The notes below the pieces were generated by a model. That model saw nothing but the letters and a program-made list of their open reading frames with translations, made no database searches and was not told where the DNA came from. The position numbers and the translations under genes are program-made. 64,000 nucleotides of DNA from a virus. Within the stretch, counting starts at the first letter, position 1. Each line of letters starts with the position of its first letter. The stretch is taken from positions 64,001-128,000 of IMG/VR virus record IMGVR_UViG_3300008954_000002; one strand, written 5' to 3'. Positions 324-9,801 of this stretch are shown piece after piece.

Positions 324-528
324 GTTAGAAGAAAAACACAAAACTAAGCAAGCTGACCTACAGCTTGCTCAACTACAAGCCCACTTCTGGAAGAATGCTT
401 TCTATGAACTTACAAATAGAATAGCAAGACTAGTTCCTGAAGCTAATATCGATCCCACATCCTATCTCCTAGAATGCGAAGCACACTTAAATAAGGAGAT
501 ACAGAGTGTCAAACTTAAAAAACCCTAG
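298..528 (+). CDS. Hypothetical coiled-coil protein
   Basis: ORF MSQARTY... overlaps both neighbours; ATG 298 chosen as the likely start. Confidence 0.55.
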   Translation: MSQARTYLELEEKHKTKQADLQLAQLQAHFWKNAFYELTNRIARLVPEANIDPTSYLLECEAHLNKEIQSVKLKKP

Positions 529-1819
529 CAATTTCGTACATTTACATGTCCACTATGAAACGAGTCTCCTAGATGGCATTAATAGAATAGATACACTGCC
601 TGAACATGTTAAAAGCCTTGGCCAGACCGCCCTTTCACAGACGGACCACGGTAATGTATCCGGTTCATATCGGTTCTTTAAGGCTTGCAACAAGGCTGGC
701 ATCAAGCCAATCATTGGGATGGAGGCCTACTATTCTGTCGAGGACAGGACTGTACGCGAAGCAGACGACCTAGAGCAGGCTTACTATCATTTAATCTTGA
801 TAGCTCTTAACAATGAAGGGCTACATAACCTGTTTAAGTTATCCTCTTATGCTTACACAACTGGATTATATAGAAAACCAAGACTCGATGACGATCTATT
901 AGGACAATATAATAAAGGTATCTGCGCCACATCAGCATGCCTTGGAAGCAGGGCATCCCAACTGATTCTTAGAGGCAGAAACCAAGAGGCCGAGAAGCTA
1001 ATACACCATCATGCAGCCTTGTTCTCGAATAGGTTCTTAATTGAACTTCAGCTACATGACGACCCAGAACAACAACTCGTCAATAGAGTACTTATGGATA
1101 TTGCCAAGCGCAACGATTACCCAATGGTACTCTCTAATGATGGACACTATACTCATGAAGCAGACAAGTATCTTCATGAAGCTGCTCTTTGCATGCAAAC
1201 CCGTTCAGTACTAAGTGATGAAAAGCGGTTTACATTCGGAGAGATAGATGTTCATGTAGCACATCATGATTGGATGTGGCATCGCGCAGACATGCAGGGT
1301 ATTCCCTATGAGAGTATTACAAATACTGTTGCTGTAGCAGATATGGTTGATGCAGATTCTTACTTTGAAGACAGAATTAATCGCTATCCAAAGTTTCAAG
1401 GACTGCCTCCAGAGCTTACTTCTGACAATGCCCTTGAAAGAGTAGCTAAAGAAGGTCTCTACAATCGTTTTGGAGAGATGCCTCCAACAGAGTATAGAGA
1501 GCGTCTTGATTCAGAGCTAAAAGCTATCAAGATCATGGGCTTCTCAGATTACATGTTAATAGTTTGGGAGCTTTTAAATGGTGCGAGGAGTGAAGGTGTC
1601 TTAACCGGACCAGGCCGTGGATCGGCAGCAGGCTCCTTAGTTGCATATGCCCTGAGGATAACAGAAGTAGATCCTATTGAGTATGGGCTTATCTTCGAGC
1701 GTTTTTTAAATAAAGGTCGATCTGCAACCCCAAAACTCTTCACTAGGCAAATGCTTGACCAGATCTTAGACAAAGACGAAAACAGTACCTTTGAAGAAAT
1801 AGAAGAGGCAGTAGGATAA
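506..1819 (+). CDS. dnaE: DNA polymerase III alpha, fragment 1 (PHP domain plus N-terminal palm up to FERFLN)
   Basis: FVHLHVH..SLLDG, TDHG, GMEAY, YHLIL, SACL, NDGHY (PHP); GPGRGSAAGSLVAYAL, FERFLN; AGGAG before the GTG start. Confidence 0.95.
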   Translation: MSNLKNPSNFVHLHVHYETSLLDGINRIDTLPEHVKSLGQTALSQTDHGNVSGSYRFFKACNKAGIKPIIGMEAYYSVEDRTVREADDLEQAYYHLILIALNNEGLHNLFKLSSYAYTTGLYRKPRLDDDLLGQYNKGICATSACLGSRASQLILRGRNQEAEKLIHHHAALFSNRFLIELQLHDDPEQQLVNRVLMDIAKRNDYPMVLSNDGHYTHEADKYLHEAALCMQTRSVLSDEKRFTFGEIDVHVAHHDWMWHRADMQGIPYESITNTVAVADMVDADSYFEDRINRYPKFQGLPPELTSDNALERVAKEGLYNRFGEMPPTEYRERLDSELKAIKIMGFSDYMLIVWELLNGARSEGVLTGPGRGSAAGSLVAYALRITEVDPIEYGLIFERFLNKGRSATPKLFTRQMLDQILDKDENSTFEEIEEAVG

Positions 1820-1834
1820 CCCTACTGCCTCTTT
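1803..1834. terminator. Hairpin/intrinsic terminator between convergent genes
   Basis: Perfect 13-bp inverted repeat AAGAGGCAGTAGG / CCTACTGCCTCTT with the dnaE-1 stop codon in the loop. Confidence 0.7.
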
Positions 1835-1858
1835 AGTCCTATAATAGCTATTTCTTAA

Positions 1859-2185
1859 CTAGAATAGTATTGAATCAATTACACGCCAGATACTAACACC
1901 ATCGCTTACAAGCCATAGCCTACCGCCATTTGCTGCTATAGCCTCAGAAGCAAATACTAGTCCCGATGCTTTTACAGTACCATTTACATCAAGCTTTTGT
2001 GCTGGTGCATTAGTGCCTATACCTGCGCGATCATTGGTGCCGTCAGAATATATGTTGTAAGCATCATTGTCAGTTTCTACTCTGAAATCAAAGTCTTCAC
2101 CAGGCTCATTGAATACTTCGTTCTTGCCTCCTTTGCGGAGATACTTCCTAGAACTATGGCTACTTGATAAAAAGCTTTTAGGCGT
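1859..2185 (-). CDS. Tail-fibre-like protein without a canonical start (ACG start or +1 frameshift from the upstream ORF)
   Basis: Hand-translated 108-codon open frame containing FNEPGEDFDFRVETD...DRAGIGTNAPAQKLDVNG, a repeat typical of phage fibres. Confidence 0.6.
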   Translation of the reverse strand, partial: TPKSFLSSSHSSRKYLRKGGKNEVFNEPGEDFDFRVETDNDAYNIYSDGTNDRAGIGTNAPAQKLDVNGTVKASGLVFASEAIAANGGRLWLVSDGVSIWRVIDSILF

Positions 2186-2186
2186 T

Positions 2187-2555
2187 TTAAAACACCGTAA
2201 TTGTTAGAGCAGCAGCTGTACTTGATACTATCTCAATAGAATGTATTTCTAAACCTGTATTACCATACTCATATACAGTGTCTCCGGTCTCTTCAAAAGT
2301 GGGGAAAGCACTGCCCGCTTGCCAAGCTTGCACAGTTTCATCAGGCTTGCTCTGGTTTCTCTTTACAACTCGTGCACAGTTGTTTATTCTAAAAGTAATA
2401 GTATCAGTAGAAGCGTCTGTCATTATCTTCATATTCTGAGCGGGTCTACCTAATACATCAAACATATCGATCTTGTCCCCCGCAGCTACAGCAGTAATAG
2501 CTGTGACCCTTGCAGGACTTAAAACATTACTTGGTACCTTAGTGTAAGTTGCCAA
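2187..2555 (-). CDS. Hypothetical, probably virion-associated, protein
   Basis: TTG start with a strong AAGGAGG Shine-Dalgarno; beta-rich, Thr/Ala/Val-rich. Confidence 0.75.
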   Translation of the reverse strand: MATYTKVPSNVLSPARVTAITAVAAGDKIDMFDVLGRPAQNMKIMTDASTDTITFRINNCARVVKRNQSKPDETVQAWQAGSAFPTFEETGDTVYEYGNTGLEIHSIEIVSSTAAALTITVF

Positions 2556-2572
2556 GGCTACCTCCTTTTGCT

Positions 2573-4162
2573 ATGGAGCTAAAATTGAAAGAGAATATTA
2601 ATAATTATTATATTCCTGAACGAGTATCAGAAGTCGATAAAGACTTCCTTACTTTTGAGGAAGATATGATATCTACATCTGATGTGCAGATGATACTTGA
2701 CATATTATCTAACAAAACCCATCTAGTAGGCAAGCTACCCAACCCTCATAATAGTATACTTCTCTATCTTACTGGTATAACAAATACTTTTGATAAAACC
2801 AAGGCACGATCAGATACAATAGATGGTAGTCCCCCCGATGTGGATGTGGATCTAGCCGCATTAGAAAGAGATAAAGTTATTCAGTGGATAGTTAATCACT
2901 GGGGAAGAGAACAAGTAGCTAATATTATTACTCATGGTACTTTTAAACCTAAGTCTCTTGCAAGAGCATACTATAGAGTTACTGAAGGTGACGGTGGCGA
3001 TCTAGCTAAGATACTTAAGATGATTCCGCCAGCAAAGTATGGCAAGGAAGCAACACTTGAAGAGATAGTAGAACTACACCCAGAATTATCTGAAGAAGAA
3101 TGCTATACAGAGTTCTATACTGCTGCACAGAAACTAGAGAATATGATCTCTAATTTTGGGATACATGCAGGTGGGTTAATAATATCTGACTTTCCTATCT
3201 CTGATGTAGTACCTATATGGAAGAATAGTAAAGCTGACGCTATTACTCAGTATGACAAGAATGAAACCGAAGAGCTCGGTCTGCTGAAGTTCGACCTACT
3301 TTCTATTGATACATTATCTATTATTAAAGATACATTGGGCCTGATAAAAAGAGATCTAGATATCGATATAGAACCATATACTATTCCAGATGGTGATACA
3401 AAAGCATACAAGATGATGAATGCTGGGCTACTTACTGGTGTCTTTCAAATGGAGACCTCTGGCAACGCAAAGAGATTATTCGAAGGTATCCAGCCACAAT
3501 CTATTAAAGAGCTATCTGATATTAGCGCCCTTAACAGACCTGGACCAGCTCAAGCTGGGCTTGATCGTACGTATATGGATAACAAGAAGAGAGGGTCGCC
3601 GCCCTCAGACCTACCAGAACCAGTTGCAGAGATTCTCAAGGGTACATACTGGACGCTTGTTTACCAAGAGCAAATAATGAATCTATGCTCTAAGCTCGCA
3701 GGCTTTACACTCCAAGAGAGTGACGATATTAGACGCGCATTAGGCAAAAAGAAGAAAGAGATCTTAGACTCTTATGAAAAGCAATTTGTTGAAGGCTGTA
3801 AAGAAACTGGTCTTGAAGAACTCTATGCTAAAAATTTATGGGAAGAACTACTAGGCTTTGCTGATTACTGTTTAGCCGGCGATACTCAAGTGCAAACAAG
3901 CGAAGGCTATGTGGCCATTGAAGATCTTATTAACAGGAACGACAGTCCCACCGTCTTATCTGTTGATAATGAAGGCAATCTCATCTATCAAGATATAGTA
4001 CAAAAACACAATAATGGCATTATGGGTCTATATGAATATACATTAGAAGACAACACTAGAGTTAAATGCACAAAGAATCATAAGTTTATGACTGCTACTG
4101 GTTCTATGATTGAAATAGACTCTGCATATAGATCTGAAGTAGACTTGTTAATAAAGGAATAA
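2573..4162 (+). CDS. dnaE: DNA polymerase III alpha, fragment 2 (catalytic palm/thumb/fingers) fused to split intein N-half
   Basis: PPDVDVD, HAGGLII, GLLKFDLL, GVFQME, ALNRPGP, VYQEQIM, DDIRRALGKKK, FADY|CLAG; ATG 2573 is the probable start but has no SD. Confidence 0.95.
   Translation: MELKLKENINNYYIPERVSEVDKDFLTFEEDMISTSDVQMILDILSNKTHLVGKLPNPHNSILLYLTGITNTFDKTKARSDTIDGSPPDVDVDLAALERDKVIQWIVNHWGREQVANIITHGTFKPKSLARAYYRVTEGDGGDLAKILKMIPPAKYGKEATLEEIVELHPELSEEECYTEFYTAAQKLENMISNFGIHAGGLIISDFPISDVVPIWKNSKADAITQYDKNETEELGLLKFDLLSIDTLSIIKDTLGLIKRDLDIDIEPYTIPDGDTKAYKMMNAGLLTGVFQMETSGNAKRLFEGIQPQSIKELSDISALNRPGPAQAGLDRTYMDNKKRGSPPSDLPEPVAEILKGTYWTLVYQEQIMNLCSKLAGFTLQESDDIRRALGKKKKEILDSYEKQFVEGCKETGLEELYAKNLWEELLGFADYCLAGDTQVQTSEGYVAIEDLINRNDSPTVLSVDNEGNLIYQDIVQKHNNGIMGLYEYTLEDNTRVKCTKNHKFMTATGSMIEIDSAYRSEVDLLIKE
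3869..4159 (+). other. Split intein N-fragment (97 aa), cyanobacterial DnaE-intein-like
   Basis: CLAGDTQVQT (block A), SVDNEGNL, YEYTLED, CTKNHKFMT (block B TxxH); ends at the stop codon. Confidence 0.95.
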
Positions 4163-4702: not shown

Positions 4703-6436
4703 ATGGCTAAAACTCAAATTCGATCTGAAGCGATTAAACTTCAGACCGCTAAAAGATTAATTGGTGGTGTAGACGGCAGCGCAGACGCTGAAGAAGTAGC
4801 AGTTGATAGTACATACTTCGATCTTGCTGCTGTCAGCGGTACAGATACTCTTCAAATTGTAGCTGAAGGCTTCCAAGACCTAGTTGGTGCAATGTTAACT
4901 GATAATACTGAAAATGGTATTGCAGTAACTTATCAAGATACAGATGGAACTATTGATTTTGATGTCAACGATCCCATAATTTCTCTAACTGGAGCTGTTG
5001 CAGGCTCAGCGACAATGACCAATCTGGGTAATGTATCTATTACCACTACTGCTACATCTGATCCAACACTAACCCTCGATGGCGACTGTAGTGGTTCGGC
5101 AACCTTTACAGACTTAGGTAATGCTACTCTCACTGTAATAGTAGCAGATAACTCTCACTACCTAGCATCTAGCTATATTTCAGATGCAACCTCTGAAGCT
5201 ACAGCAAATGTAATTGTTAAGCGAGATGCTAGTGGTGACTTTGCAGCCAATAACTTATCAGTAGCTGGTATTACAGCAAATGGTAATATTTCAGCAGTTG
5301 ACATGACCTTATCTGGCGATCTCTTGGTTAATGGTACCCAGACTTTTATGGATACAACCAGATGGCTAGTTAAAGATAAGGACATGGTCCTAGGTGTTGC
5401 TGGTGGTGAACGTCTTGCAGTAAGTCGTACAAACGCCTCTCCATCTGTTTACTCACAAACTGCTCATGGCTACTCCACTAATGATTATATCTACATATGG
5501 GGTGATAGTGGTTCTGTTTCTGATGGTGTTCATCAGGTCACTTCTATCGACGCCGATAGCTTCAGCATTGCTGTAGACACAAGCGGAGACACTGGTTCTA
5601 AAAGCTCCAACATGTCCCTTAGTGCAGTAACAGAAGCTACTGCCAACGGCGGTGGGCTCCATGTTCCTGGTACTAGCTTGCACAAGCTAATTTACAATAG
5701 CACTAATGGCTGGGACTCTACTGATGATCTTAACATTGCCACCGGAAAGGTGTTTAAAATTGCTGGAAGTGAAGTACTTTCTGCAAGCAACCTTGACAAT
5801 GCTGTCAAGGTAGAAAACGCAAACTGGGATAGTACTACGAACAAACAACTAACAGTTACAAATGGTGGTACTGGACTACAAGCTGTTACACAGGGCGATA
5901 TTTTGTATGCTAGTGCTACAAATACCATTAGTGCTGCAGGGCCAGGATCTGAATCTAATGTACAAGCTTGGGATGCTGCTTTGGATGACTTTAGTGGTCT
6001 TATCCAAACCCCAAACAAGATCCCCTACTTTGACAGTGCTACCACTATGGATATGTTTGACTTCAAAGATGAAGATAACATGTCTTCTAACTCTGATGCG
6101 GCATTAGCCTCACAACAGTCTATCAAGGCATATGCTGATAATAGTGGTGGCGCAGCCTCCCTATTTGCACATAGTACTGTTGGTGCTGGTGGCGTAGCCT
6201 CTGGGGACACAACTGCACACGGCGCAACCATGGTTGCTGGCCTAGATGCCAGTGGCATTTCTAATGTGGGTGGCGATGAAACAAAGTATATGGTCTTTCT
6301 AGACGGTATGCTACAAGACAAAGGTGCAAACGATGACTTTAGTCATGTCTATGACAACGATAACGCGCTTACCATAAAATGGCAAAAAACACTTTATGAA
6401 GGACAAACAATTGTCATTCGTGGCGCTACAGTCTAA
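4703..6436 (+). CDS. Tail fibre / virion appendage protein
   Basis: Gly/Thr/Asp/Ser-rich with repeats (ISLTGAVAGSAT/LTLDGDCSGSAT), IVKRDASG, GDLLVNGT, GGTG, TAHGY module; AAGGAG SD. Confidence 0.8.
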   Translation: MAKTQIRSEAIKLQTAKRLIGGVDGSADAEEVAVDSTYFDLAAVSGTDTLQIVAEGFQDLVGAMLTDNTENGIAVTYQDTDGTIDFDVNDPIISLTGAVAGSATMTNLGNVSITTTATSDPTLTLDGDCSGSATFTDLGNATLTVIVADNSHYLASSYISDATSEATANVIVKRDASGDFAANNLSVAGITANGNISAVDMTLSGDLLVNGTQTFMDTTRWLVKDKDMVLGVAGGERLAVSRTNASPSVYSQTAHGYSTNDYIYIWGDSGSVSDGVHQVTSIDADSFSIAVDTSGDTGSKSSNMSLSAVTEATANGGGLHVPGTSLHKLIYNSTNGWDSTDDLNIATGKVFKIAGSEVLSASNLDNAVKVENANWDSTTNKQLTVTNGGTGLQAVTQGDILYASATNTISAAGPGSESNVQAWDAALDDFSGLIQTPNKIPYFDSATTMDMFDFKDEDNMSSNSDAALASQQSIKAYADNSGGAASLFAHSTVGAGGVASGDTTAHGATMVAGLDASGISNVGGDETKYMVFLDGMLQDKGANDDFSHVYDNDNALTIKWQKTLYEGQTIVIRGATV

Positions 6437-6481
6437 ACAACACAATATATAGACATTAAGTATCTTTCTAAGGTACAACCT

Positions 6482-6513
6482 AGTGCGGGGGGAGAACCCC
6501 CCGCACTTTCTTT
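6482..6513 (+). terminator. Rho-independent terminator
   Basis: 11-bp stem AGTGCGGGGGG-AGAA-CCCCCCGCACT followed by TTCTTT. Confidence 0.85.
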
Positions 6514-6526
6514 ATATGGAGAAAAT

Positions 6527-6952
6527 ATGATTAGAAAGGTAAAACAATTCTTTTATAGAACAAGGCTAATAATAAGACTCTTGTATCGATCAAGTATATG
6601 GAAGGAAGCGAATCTTATAAGAGACAATATGGAACTAAGAACTGGCGGTGGTAACTATAAAAAAGACTACCGACGATATTGTAATATACTCCGTGGTCGT
6701 ATAAGAACTGATAATGTGGGATGGGATGACATAGTAGGAGTCACTACTCTTTCTATTGTGGGAACAGCAGCAGAAGATAACGAACTACTTAAACAGCAAG
6801 CTCTTGAACTAGCATCTATCTCTACAGACCTATATGTTATGCTTTGTGAAAGAAAAGTAGATCACTCTGGCATTCGTGAAGAGGGTGAGGAAATTAAAAG
6901 CGAACACAGCACTCTAGTATTGATAGATACCAATACGGAAACAGAGCTATAA
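6527..6952 (+). CDS. Hypothetical protein
   Basis: ORF with GGAG SD. Confidence 0.7.
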   Translation: MIRKVKQFFYRTRLIIRLLYRSSIWKEANLIRDNMELRTGGGNYKKDYRRYCNILRGRIRTDNVGWDDIVGVTTLSIVGTAAEDNELLKQQALELASISTDLYVMLCERKVDHSGIREEGEEIKSEHSTLVLIDTNTETEL

Positions 6953-7129
6953 ATGTTCCTACAGCCTAAAGATATAACCTCAGTCATATTCTTGCTTTCA
7001 TCTACAATGTGGCTAGGAACTTTTATTCTTGCTATACTATCAGACAGCTCATTCTCAGAATGTTTTAAATTGCTGAGCCTATCAATATTATGTGGATATG
7101 TTTCTTACTATTTCCACTTCAACATGTAA
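6953..7129 (+). CDS. Small two-TM membrane protein (58 aa), not in the ORF track
   Basis: MFLQPKDITSVIFLLSSTMWLGTFILAIL...LLSLSILCGYVSYYFHFNM; starts immediately after the previous stop. Confidence 0.55.
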   Translation: MFLQPKDITSVIFLLSSTMWLGTFILAILSDSSFSECFKLLSLSILCGYVSYYFHFNM

Positions 7130-7149
7130 CAAGAGGATCTATCGACTAC

Positions 7150-7506
7150 ATGTACGAGTCACAAGAAAAAGAAGATAAAGATTATATAGCTGAAGTTGAA
7201 TACTGCCTTGATGGTATTATCCCAGAAGAGGTTATGCTTGTTGATTTACTAAGAAAACTAAAAATCCAAGCAGAAGATATTGAAGACTACTCTTTATCGT
7301 TTTCACCTGGAGAAAGAACAGAAGATTATGATTACTTTGTAATCACTTGCTCAAAGACTACTGCTTCACAGAGCGACTCTCACGAGTCTTCTCCCTACGG
7401 AGTAAGCCTGTCGCTTTATCAAGATAGAGTTTCAGAACTCACTTCATCTGAGCAAGACGATACTACTTTAGGAAATCAGCTACAGCTTATATTCTCCAAC
7501 GATTAA
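7150..7506 (+). CDS. Hypothetical acidic protein
   Basis: ATG 7150 after AAGAGGA; Asp/Glu-rich. Confidence 0.65.
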   Translation: MYESQEKEDKDYIAEVEYCLDGIIPEEVMLVDLLRKLKIQAEDIEDYSLSFSPGERTEDYDYFVITCSKTTASQSDSHESSPYGVSLSLYQDRVSELTSSEQDDTTLGNQLQLIFSND

Positions 7507-7520
7507 CCGTAAGGATATAT

Positions 7521-7625
7521 ATGAAGATTAAATCCCGAGAATACCTCGGGCTTGCACCAGTGTATGATATTGGTCTGCCCGACCATCACAATTTTGTTAT
7601 TCAAGGCGGTTTAGTTGCGGCAAAT
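7521..7625 (+). other. Split intein C-fragment (35 aa)
   Basis: MKIKSREYLGLAPVYDIGLPDHHNFVIQGGLVAAN followed by Cys+1 (CFN). Confidence 0.95.
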
Positions 7626-8714
7626 TGTTTCAATGCAAGCCATTCTGTCTCGTATTCAAAGCTTACTTACATATCCGCCTATTTGAAAGCAAACTATCCG
7701 GCACAATTCTTCTGTGCACTTATGTCTGTGCGCTCCAAGTCTTTGCAACCTAAGCTCTGGGCTAATAAAGCTCCTGAGTATATGCAGGAGGCAGGCCGTC
7801 TTGGTGTAACTATACATCCACCCTCTATTAATGGTTCTGAACTTGAATTCTCAGTAAAGAGCAATGATATCTACTTTGGACTCAATGCTATTAGAGACGT
7901 TGGTGTTGCTGCAGCTAGAGCCATTATAAAAGCAAGAGGTAGCCAGCCATATAAAGACATATACGACTTTCTACATAGGGTAAACCTTAGGAAAGCGACT
8001 ACTAAGACTTTTATAAGCCTTGTAAAGGCAGGCGCTTTTGACAAGTTGGGATATAGCCGCCCATCTCTTCTTGAACATACAGCCGCTTTATATGCTTATG
8101 TAAAAGATATTGTAGAATATGAACAAAGAAAGTTAGATATAGTCGCTAGAGACGAAGAAAATAGAAAGAAAACACTTCTCTTAGATAGAAAAAAAGAACT
8201 AAACAAACTATTACGAAAAGAGAAAAGAGAACCCACCTCCAAAGAAGAGGAGTTCTTAATTAGTATCAAAGGTCTTAGACGGTTACCCGCTCTTAAACCC
8301 AAGGCTTTTCCTGAACCACCAGAAGTAAAAAGAGCTAGCACTGTTGAACTCTCATTAGAAGAGATCATGGAGCAGGCACACTACATAGGTTGCTATGTAG
8401 GAGTACATCCAGTTATGCTCATCAACAACAACGCAGAGCGTCTGTGCAACCTATATACAGGTCAACATGCTAATGTCTGCGGAGTACTTAACAATGTCAA
8501 AGAAATCACAACTAGAAAGGGAAGACAAATGGCTTTCCTAGAAATAGATGATTCCACTGACATAGCTGAGGTAGTAGTTTTCCCAGCTGTATGGCGCAAG
8601 ACTAATCAGTCTTTAGTCACGCAGGGAAAGCTAGTAGAGTTAAGAGTTAAGGTTGAGCAAGAAGAACCAACCCTTAAGCTAATGGCTACTTCAGTCAAAA
8701 TATACGAGGAATAG
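7521..8714 (+). CDS. dnaE: Split intein C-half fused to DNA polymerase III alpha fragment 3 (fingers, HhH, OB-fold)
   Basis: ...AAN|CFNASHSVSY, AYLKANYP, PPSINGS, IYFGLNAIRDVG, LVKAGAFD, TRKGRQMAFLEIDD..EVVVFP. Confidence 0.95.
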   Translation: MKIKSREYLGLAPVYDIGLPDHHNFVIQGGLVAANCFNASHSVSYSKLTYISAYLKANYPAQFFCALMSVRSKSLQPKLWANKAPEYMQEAGRLGVTIHPPSINGSELEFSVKSNDIYFGLNAIRDVGVAAARAIIKARGSQPYKDIYDFLHRVNLRKATTKTFISLVKAGAFDKLGYSRPSLLEHTAALYAYVKDIVEYEQRKLDIVARDEENRKKTLLLDRKKELNKLLRKEKREPTSKEEEFLISIKGLRRLPALKPKAFPEPPEVKRASTVELSLEEIMEQAHYIGCYVGVHPVMLINNNAERLCNLYTGQHANVCGVLNNVKEITTRKGRQMAFLEIDDSTDIAEVVVFPAVWRKTNQSLVTQGKLVELRVKVEQEEPTLKLMATSVKIYEE

Positions 8715-8718
8715 TTAT

Positions 8719-9801
8719 ATGAGTAGATGGCAACCAGAAGAAGAACACTTACTTAGGCTTTTGCTACCTACAAATAGCCATACCGAGATAGCAGTAGAAT
8801 TTGAAAGGCGCTTCCAAAAGATGCTGCCTGGATTTACCTCGCTAAGATCTTCAGAAGCAATACGCAAGAAGTGTAACCGCGAAGAACTAACAGCTGATTC
8901 TATAGTAGGATACAGCGATCCCTATAAAGATCGCTGGGAATATATTAAGAGTCTTGGAAACGAGTACAAGCTAGACGCTGAGGAACTAACAGTAGGAATA
9001 GTAGACGATGTAGATAGAAAGATACTCACACTATCTGATCTACACTTTCCGTTTGCCCTAGAGGACCATATACATAGGGCACTACTCGATCATTCAGACG
9101 CAGATGTTGTCGTGCTGAATGGCGATCTACTAGACGGATATATATTCTCTACCTTTGGCAGAGCCAAACGAGTAGCCGCACTTAAAGAGTACATAGCTGT
9201 ATTTGAACTAGTTCGTTATATTTCAGACAACTTCCCACATGTTATTATTACAAGTGGAAATCATGATGTAAGGCCTGCAAGAGCACTTAGCAGATCAGAC
9301 TTCAACAAAGAAGCTACTCAAGTACTTAGACCAGACCTATTAGCTAGAATAGCTAATGGCGAAATGCTTGATGAATATGGCGAGATAGTAGAACTAGTCG
9401 GCATGGATAATGTTACATATCAAAAATATGACTCTTGGTATGTACGAGTAGGCAAAACAATATTCTGCCATCCATCTGCATGGCGGGGTAGCTATCCTGG
9501 AGGCACTGTAACTAAACTATGCGATTACTTTACCAACAGAATGGGCAGTGAATCTTTTGACTCTATAGTCGTGGGGCACACACACCGGATCTATATGGGT
9601 ATTGTTGGCAACAAACTACTAATAGAGCAGGGTGCTATGTGCGCTCGACAGCCCTACCAGCATAAAGATGATCTCAGATTCACACATGCCATGAACGGCT
9701 ATGCAGTAATATATCAAGACGCAGACGGCAATACAGACTTCAACCTAAGCGGCCCAATATATATTGGAAGCCAATTACCACCTAAAAAGGAAATACTATA
9801 A
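8719..9801 (+). CDS. Calcineurin-like metallophosphoesterase with an N-terminal HTH-like region
   Basis: SDLH, GDLLD, GNHD, H, GHTH motifs. Confidence 0.85.
   Translation: MSRWQPEEEHLLRLLLPTNSHTEIAVEFERRFQKMLPGFTSLRSSEAIRKKCNREELTADSIVGYSDPYKDRWEYIKSLGNEYKLDAEELTVGIVDDVDRKILTLSDLHFPFALEDHIHRALLDHSDADVVVLNGDLLDGYIFSTFGRAKRVAALKEYIAVFELVRYISDNFPHVIITSGNHDVRPARALSRSDFNKEATQVLRPDLLARIANGEMLDEYGEIVELVGMDNVTYQKYDSWYVRVGKTIFCHPSAWRGSYPGGTVTKLCDYFTNRMGSESFDSIVVGHTHRIYMGIVGNKLLIEQGAMCARQPYQHKDDLRFTHAMNGYAVIYQDADGNTDFNLSGPIYIGSQLPPKKEIL

Follow-up and report, generated by a model that had tools for sequence, protein, structure and literature searches.

How does a replicative DNA polymerase work when its gene is interrupted inside the catalytic palm domain? 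The question is raised by a family C (DnaE-type) polymerase of a marine phage, which is encoded within the first 8.7 kb of a 64,000-nucleotide stretch of DNA (positions 64,001 to 128,000 of IMG/VR record IMGVR_UViG_3300008954_000002). We refer to this whole stretch as the window and count coordinates from its first nucleotide. The source genome is complete, with 161,098 bp and direct terminal repeats. One polymerase is spread here over three plus-strand open reading frames (ORFs), which we call fragments 1 to 3. The second break between them coincides with a split intein. The first, break 1, is probably a true and ancient fission of a family C replicase, in which the palm is formed from two polypeptides without covalent joining.

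Fragment 1 (positions 506 to 1819, plus strand) codes for 437 residues of DNA polymerase III (Pol III) alpha, comprising a PHP domain (Pfam PF02811, residues 12-184, E 2.3e-42) and the N-terminal half of the palm. This palm half (1430 to 1732, plus strand) carries the GPGRGS motif of the GS loop (1607-1624) and the FERFLN motif (1694-1711), and ends at the Pro found ahead of the catalytic Asp in enzymes that are not split. The Pfam palm model PF07733 (DNA_pol3_alpha) has 260 positions, of which 2-102 are matched by residues 309-409 of fragment 1, ending with FERFLNKGRSATP, and 100-259 by fragment 2 (2573 to 4162, plus strand, 529 residues) from residue 86 (PPDVDVD) onwards. The cut therefore splits one palm between the half with the GS motif and FERFLN and the DxD strand, in agreement with the initial annotation of this locus, which had placed the break in the polymerase active site. 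Pol III alpha chains from the Protein Data Bank (PDB) likewise align with fragment 2 from residue 86 and put break 1 directly before D401 in Escherichia coli numbering. The catalytic residues of the E. coli enzyme are D401, D403 and D555 (PMC3919608); by alignment with the PDB chains, the equivalents of D401 and D403 lie in PDVDVD (2834 to 2851, plus strand), and the third catalytic Asp is D241 of fragment 2 (3293-3295). The elements of the palm are divided accordingly, with GPGRGS in fragment 1 and D89/D91 (with D93) and D241 in fragment 2. No single chain holds the catalytic core, as a stop codon, a hairpin and opposite-strand genes separate the two ORFs.

Downstream of the palm and thumb, fragment 2 continues with the fingers (DNA_pol3_finger, PF17657) and, from C433 (nucleotide 3869), with the N-terminal half of a split intein (Intein_splicing). 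Fragment 3 (7521 to 8714, plus strand) opens with the C-terminal half of the intein, followed by HhH and OB domains (HHH_6, PF14579; tRNA_anti-codon, PF01336). The set of family C DnaE features is complete across the three ORFs: PHP, a palm with a GS loop and three catalytic Asp residues, fingers, HhH and OB. Both ends at break 1 lie further out than had been annotated. Fragment 1, given as ending at ...SATP, runs on for 28 residues, and fragment 2, given as starting at DFLTFEE, begins 23 residues earlier at the ATG at 2573 (MELKLKEN...). The matches in fragments 1 and 2 are the only two to PF07733 in the whole genome, and a search of the complete genome found no family A (PolA) or family B (PolB) polymerase; this polymerase must therefore work.

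Fragment 2 does not start with the palm. Its first 88 residues (2573 to 2836, plus strand), which we call the head, form a segment that is conserved in 70 cluster representatives and helical in an AlphaFold model. A search with residues 1-95 of fragment 2 returned 17 relatives, all beginning with the same head; some are ~530 residues long and carry an intein half, and others, of 800-850 residues, correspond to fragments 2 and 3 fused. An exhaustive search of 1.84 billion representative proteins with a head profile gave 70 clusters at E 0.001 or better, clustered at 50% identity and stemming from uncultured phages. The head begins within the first 16 residues of the protein in all of these clusters but the last, a repetitive 328-residue protein (E 1e-4), and a word-index search found no fused, longer proteins carrying it. 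Among 33 related loci drawn from assemblies and IMG/VR, the fragment-1 gene lies upstream on the same strand in 28, at gaps of 0 to ~4 kb. It is not within 3.5 kb (L009) or 6 kb (L013) upstream of fragment 2 in two loci, and in L027, L028 and L032 the upstream sequence examined was less than 2 kb. The content of the gap varies: a minus-strand gene of 122-137 residues, with or without another gene; in L010, three small genes on the plus strand; or no gene at all. The last is the case in L023 (IMGVR_UViG_3300013121_000008, 5990-6010), a deep, long branch of the clade with no gene between the pieces, in which fragment 1 ends ...IPLIFDEE and is followed by TAA, after which fragment 2 begins, in frame, with its ATG as the very next codon. 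The clade is monophyletic with respect to bacterial DnaE (support 100/100). The split is ancient and clade-wide.

Both segments at the break, the end of fragment 1 and the head of fragment 2, are under selection. GPGRGS, the Arg of FxRFLN and the GR..P motif are invariant in 23 distinct fragment-1 relatives, the deepest branches included. The hydrophobic L-I-F that follows GR..P is kept in the same relatives, and just the last 10-60 residues vary. In the tail of fragment 1 (28 residues; 1733 to 1816, plus strand), the alignments show only P-x-[LI]-[FL]-x3-M in common with the relatives, whose own tails are often Cys/His-rich or end in ...PF. Cys/His-rich C-termini occur in L004, L006-L008, L014, L015, L017, L021 and L031 (for example ...PCSHSHQSH and ...CASHCQCDKH), and L029 has a Cys/His-rich N-terminal extension of fragment 1; these extensions may bind metal, and the copy in the window has none. 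Fragment 1 is ~42% identical to full-length bacterial DnaE and the core of fragment 2 is 34% identical, in a comparison set that was chosen by likeness to fragment 1, and between pairs of bacterial DnaE the ratio of the two segments is near 1. Separate origins of the two fragments were considered on these grounds and dropped because of the way the set was chosen.

In the head, R17, E29, N57, N60, S61, L64 and G85 are invariant in 58 fragment-2 sequences down to 26% identity, and D22, D24, L26, D37, P58, Y65, G68, F73 and R79 are nearly so; in the adjoining core, D89, D91, D93 and D241 are invariant or nearly invariant in the relatives. This pattern indicates that the head is under strong purifying selection and is not a decaying relic. 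The head alone matched nothing in Pfam, PHROGs or PDB sequences. An AlphaFold model of residues 1-260, computed from the 58-sequence input, has a mean predicted local distance difference test score (pLDDT) of 93, with the head above 90; a model from a shallower input of 17 sequences was too poor to be used (pLDDT 64, predicted TM score 0.27). The modelled helices span residues 2-10, 15-18, 23-32, 35-45 and 62-67, and the catalytic strand residues 89-95. The core of the model (residues 85-260) superposes on Taq Pol III alpha 459-637 with a root-mean-square deviation (rmsd) of 2.3 Å over 168 residues, and on the Pol III alpha structures in general with 2.3-2.8 Å. Alignments that include the head (residues 1-85) have an rmsd of 11-12 Å against E. 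coli 284-574, from which we estimate that the head is ~20 Å from the canonical position. In the model, the canonical place of the GS loop and its helices is therefore left free.

The GS loop and the arginine of FERFLN bind the incoming dNTP, as seen in ternary structures of Pol III alpha and PolC. Completion of the active site in trans by fragment 1 is the most likely arrangement, because the motifs of fragment 1 are invariant in its 23 relatives and the head does not occupy the canonical GS-loop place in the AlphaFold model; it was the first of two alternatives offered in the initial annotation and is the one best supported here. Besides its PHP domain, fragment 1 would supply the strand, GS loop, GS-helix and FERFLN helix, which make up the first half of the nucleotidyltransferase core of Pol-beta-like type. 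Once linked to fragment 3 through the split intein, fragment 2 would contribute the two-Asp strand and the third Asp, along with thumb, fingers and a DNA-binding tail. The head is a clade-specific module and may dock fragment 1 onto fragment 2, possibly together with the P-L-I-F stretch after the last canonical residue of fragment 1.

The second alternative was a fragment 2 with a remodelled, self-sufficient palm. The head, through the helix with N57, N60 and S61 and through R79, would replace the GS loop and the arginines, and fragment 1 would act on its own as a PHP subunit for proofreading or as a pyrophosphatase, its remnant of the palm being no more than a handle. An invariant N-x-x-N-S followed by a helix does lie 28 residues before DxD, comparable to the 33 residues that separate the canonical GS from it, and R79 is nearly invariant. 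Mere use as a handle would not need the dNTP-site motifs that are invariant in fragment 1 throughout the clade, however, and the head lacks GRGS and the FERFLN helix, a loss that the initial annotation had already pointed out. Together with the displacement of the head in the model, this makes a self-sufficient fragment 2 unlikely.

Assembly in trans from two separate chains also has to be weighed against a joining of the pieces into one chain, be it by a trans-spliced intron, a decayed or atypical split intein, or stop-codon readthrough. Such a mechanism would not be foreign to this genome and its clade, which are full of inteins and introns: break 2 has its split intein, the PHP domain of other relatives contains a complete intein, in L023 a lone TAA parts the two frames, and in L014 a group I intron interrupts the PD|IDID codons. 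Rfam detects the latter as Intron_gpI with 89.8 bits (7037-7252), with a LAGLIDADG gene and exactly between SPPD and IDIDF (region 6250-7300); an intron of this type at PD|IDID therefore explains the many matches of 80-98 residues in the exhaustive head search. In the window, by contrast, Rfam finds no intron RNA between positions 1 and 10000 at E up to 1, nor any other RNA family except one chance-level leader match elsewhere. The genes in the gap are encoded on the other strand, fragment 1 ends in a terminator-like hairpin, and some relatives have fragment 1 at a distance of more than 3.5-6 kb. Joining at the RNA level, which the initial annotation had named as one outcome that would speak against its reading, thus has no support from strand layout or Rfam.

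At the protein level, the description of break 1 as free of an intein is borne out. Searches with HINT families at E up to 10 gave no match in the head or the tail of fragment 1, and whereas a HINT fold is rich in beta strands, the head is predicted to consist of helices only (pLDDT above 90). The fragment 1 tails contain no conserved Cys or Ser nucleophile, H59 of the head varies, and a single joined chain would hold two copies of the segment. Taken together, we regard joining to one chain as very improbable. NPHN|S was tried as an intein C-terminal junction and rejected, as H59 is replaced by Y, F or N, the segment is helical and the N-terminal part of the intein would be canonical DnaE sequence.

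If the palm is assembled from two chains, where does the head come from? The initial annotation had aligned it by eye with the end of fragment 1 and had read it as a degenerate copy, left by a duplication that preceded the fission. With seven residues invariant in 58 sequences, the segment is not degenerate; for a copy, there is marginal profile similarity. BLASTP between the head and the end of fragment 1 gives nothing (E 6.2, in another register), and HHalign returns the register seen by eye in every run, HNSILLYLTGITN against AGSLVAYALRITE, pairing HNSILLYLTGIT with AGSLVAYALRIT at a P of only 0.009-0.03. With thin profiles (17 against 6 sequences) the E value was 0.19, and the head against 114 canonical DnaE gave a P of 0.026. 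A 55-sequence head profile reached a P of 0.0089 against the 114 canonical DnaE (5 of 200 column shuffles attained its score) and of 0.027 against 23 fragment-1 tails. The similarity is limited to a single helix, NPHNSILLYLTGIT (2741 to 2782, plus strand), which is the invariant core of the head; its profile resemblance to the canonical GS-helix SAAGSLVAYALGIT is marginal, and no other part of the head shows one. With a low posterior cut-off, the alignment extends collinearly, placing D-F-L-x-F-E-E on the R-L-D-x-E-L helix, the next helix on Y-M-L-I-V and K-A-R-S on K-G-R-S; this extension contributes no score. The profile comparison proposed in the initial annotation is thus marginal and, at the sequence level, close to an absence of significant similarity.

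Further observations are consistent with a copy. The similar span covers 77 residues in the head (Y12-P88) and 80 in fragment 1 (Y330-P409), and the elements of the head follow one another as they do in the canonical palm segment of crystal structures (helix, helix, strand/loop, helix). When fragment 2 is aligned by BLAST with full-length DnaE from Streptomyces phage Samisti12 and from Mycobacterium phage MrMiyagi, both alignments pass collinearly through the head in the same register. When residues 1-88 alone are compared by structure with the ESM Atlas, the named neighbours are all Pol III alpha clusters (TM 0.64-0.75 over 84-88 residues), among them PHP-bearing bacterial and viral Pol III alpha without this head. 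In terms of gene layout, a tandem copy of the palm segment would have arisen first, after which a stop and a start codon would have split the gene, and other genes would later have entered the gap in most lineages; the abutting cistrons of L023 are what would be expected to remain of a tandem copy followed by a stop codon.

A number of results weigh against a copy. None of the canonical DnaE among the 1.84 billion proteins is matched by the head profile, and profile searches of PDB and Pfam with the head were blank, the former giving chance matches only (E 0.8 or worse) and no Pol III alpha. The HHalign probability of 2-5% is under any database-level threshold. HMMER forward scores of 55 heads against a hidden Markov model of the canonical segment are not above shuffles, with 33 of 300 column shuffles as high. 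When HHalign is anchored on the DxD strand, the Viterbi alignment stops at SPP with no upstream extension, in a comparison whose shuffle control was unusable because the SPP columns were shuffled too. The Samisti12 and MrMiyagi alignments are the top rows of a coverage-sorted list and hence selected. In the ESM Atlas search the fold comes from a language model, which may have taken the DnaE shape from the context, the scores are uncalibrated for parts of proteins, and TM scores of an 88-residue helical piece are weak evidence. As for gene layout, the branching order at the base of the clade tree is not settled and L023 is a long branch, so the abutting layout could derive from a deletion.

In our view, the odds are about even that the head arose by tandem copying of the palm segment, ~80 residues long, with which fragment 1 now closes. 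A duplication before the fission is thus plausible and unproven, with the marginal HHalign P of ~0.01-0.03 complemented by indirect support. More tentatively, and with rather less confidence, we propose that the head is paralogous to the palm end of fragment 1 and that the sister copies pack together as the interface of the split replicase. The same two-piece palm and docking head could also have come about if the head were an unrelated insertion, or had arisen de novo in the loop before the catalytic strand, with the S...Y..GIT likeness due to chance or convergence. Consistent with such an origin, BLASTP, Pfam, the hmmsearch of PDB sequences and HMMER forward scoring detect no similarity, the exhaustive profile search finds no canonical DnaE, the HHalign signal is confined to one helix at a P of ~0.01-0.03, and no repeat is visible at the DNA level, where repeat analysis found nothing beyond chance that links the two polymerase segments. 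An unrelated segment would not, however, be expected to give its best local alignment in the collinear register in every profile pairing, to agree with the canonical segment in length and helix order, to have ESM Atlas neighbours that are all Pol III alpha, or to show the layout seen in L023. We consider an unrelated origin possible but rather unlikely.

The gap between the two polymerase pieces in the window contains three features. A perfect 13-bp hairpin (1803 to 1833), found by repeat and hairpin analysis, spans the stop codon of fragment 1 between convergent genes and resembles a terminator. It is followed on the minus strand by an open frame of 114 codons from stop to stop (1859 to 2203) without an ATG, GTG or TTG start, which has a tail-fibre-like motif (DFDFRVE...RAGIGT...KLDVNG) and weak PHROG matches to tail and tail-fibre families (E 8.5e-5 to 1e-3), and which overlaps the stop of the next gene by 17 nt. 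Relatives have a gene of 152-343 residues in its place, and the frame could have an unusual start, be a frameshift product of the upstream gene or be a remnant. The third feature is a minus-strand gene of 122 residues (2187 to 2555) with a strong Shine-Dalgarno sequence and a TTG start. It is 45% identical to the 137-residue gene of L006, has tblastn matches in 11 related loci and sits between the polymerase pieces in many relatives; it has no family match in Pfam or PHROGs. Neither of these databases recognises a homing endonuclease in the 122-residue gene or the 114-codon frame; an endonuclease too divergent for them is possible. The TTG of the 122-residue gene, preceded by a strong AAGGAGGT site, and the divergent ATG of fragment 2, which has no visible ribosome-binding site, are only 17 bp apart (2555-2573), which implies either promoters inside each other's coding sequence or leaderless translation of fragment 2.

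The polymerase genes of the related loci carry further interruptions. In L016, L017, L021 and L033-L035 the fragment-2 ORF ends early, after 313-397 residues, at sites other than those in the window; the remainder of the gene resumes 0.5-1.2 kb downstream in L016, L017 and L021, and no continuation was found within the loci L033-L035. L014 has a second LAGLIDADG gene (8460-9470) at the GFANY site, the position of the split intein in the window, and no intron RNA was detected there. Five fragment-1 relatives of 800-817 residues (P0020-P0024) have their PHP domain interrupted, behind the SND of the ND.HY motif, by a full intein with a LAGLIDADG domain, and end at the same break as fragment 1.

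Several essential phage and bacterial enzymes are known to be encoded in pieces. The family B polymerase gp43 is split in T4-like phages such as Aeromonas phages 25, Aeh1 and their relatives (Petrov and Karam, 2004, Petrov et al., 2006, as cited in PMC2677866). As in the phage described here, a replicative polymerase is encoded there by two genes around inserted DNA, free of an intein and with pieces presumed to associate non-covalently; the difference lies in the polymerase, which is of family C in our case. We know of no conserved extra module or overlapping copy reported at the gp43 breaks. One of the gp43 inserts is reported to include a GIY-YIG homing endonuclease (PMC2677866), whereas none was recognised in the gap here. 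The same source reports that NrdA of phage Aeh1 is split by the HNH endonuclease gene mobE (Gibb and Edgell, as cited in PMC2677866). This too is an intein-less fracture of an essential phage enzyme whose function comes from two chains, in another enzyme, however, and with an endonuclease that causes and still occupies a break that is recent and not clade-wide.

Closer in protein family are the cyanobacterial and metagenomic DnaE, whose genes are fractured by split inteins (PMC2677866, PMC3919608). The phage gene has such a break between fragments 2 and 3. Trans-splicing ligates the pieces of those enzymes to one chain, whereas break 1 is free of intein parts. Canonical DnaE1 (E. coli 2HNH; Taq 2HPI, 3E0D and 4IQJ; Mycobacterium tuberculosis 5LEW and 7PU7) shares with the phage enzyme the domain order, the three catalytic Asp residues and the core fold (rmsd 2.3-2.8 Å), but in the phage enzyme the chain is interrupted after the FERFLN helix and before the DxD strand, with an additional module of 88 residues ahead of this strand. 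In ~2000 bacterial genomes surveyed for Pol III alpha, intein splits and fragments due to frameshifts are the only divided forms mentioned (PMC3919608), and our literature search found no description of a family C polymerase cut inside the palm in an intein-free manner, or of a conserved module at such a break.

For genome annotation, the split means that automatic pipelines will miscount or misname polymerases in this marine phage group. If the chains assemble as proposed here, break 1 would represent a natural, evolution-tested split site for Pol III alpha, and the head a candidate for a docking module of small size. Dassa et al. (PMC2677866) note that intermediates of gene fission are rarely seen, and the clade would then offer a rare series of them in an essential gene. 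If the duplication is real, these phages would have kept the steps of a fission by internal tandem duplication, from abutting TAA-ATG cistrons in one deep lineage to a gap later colonised by unrelated genes elsewhere.

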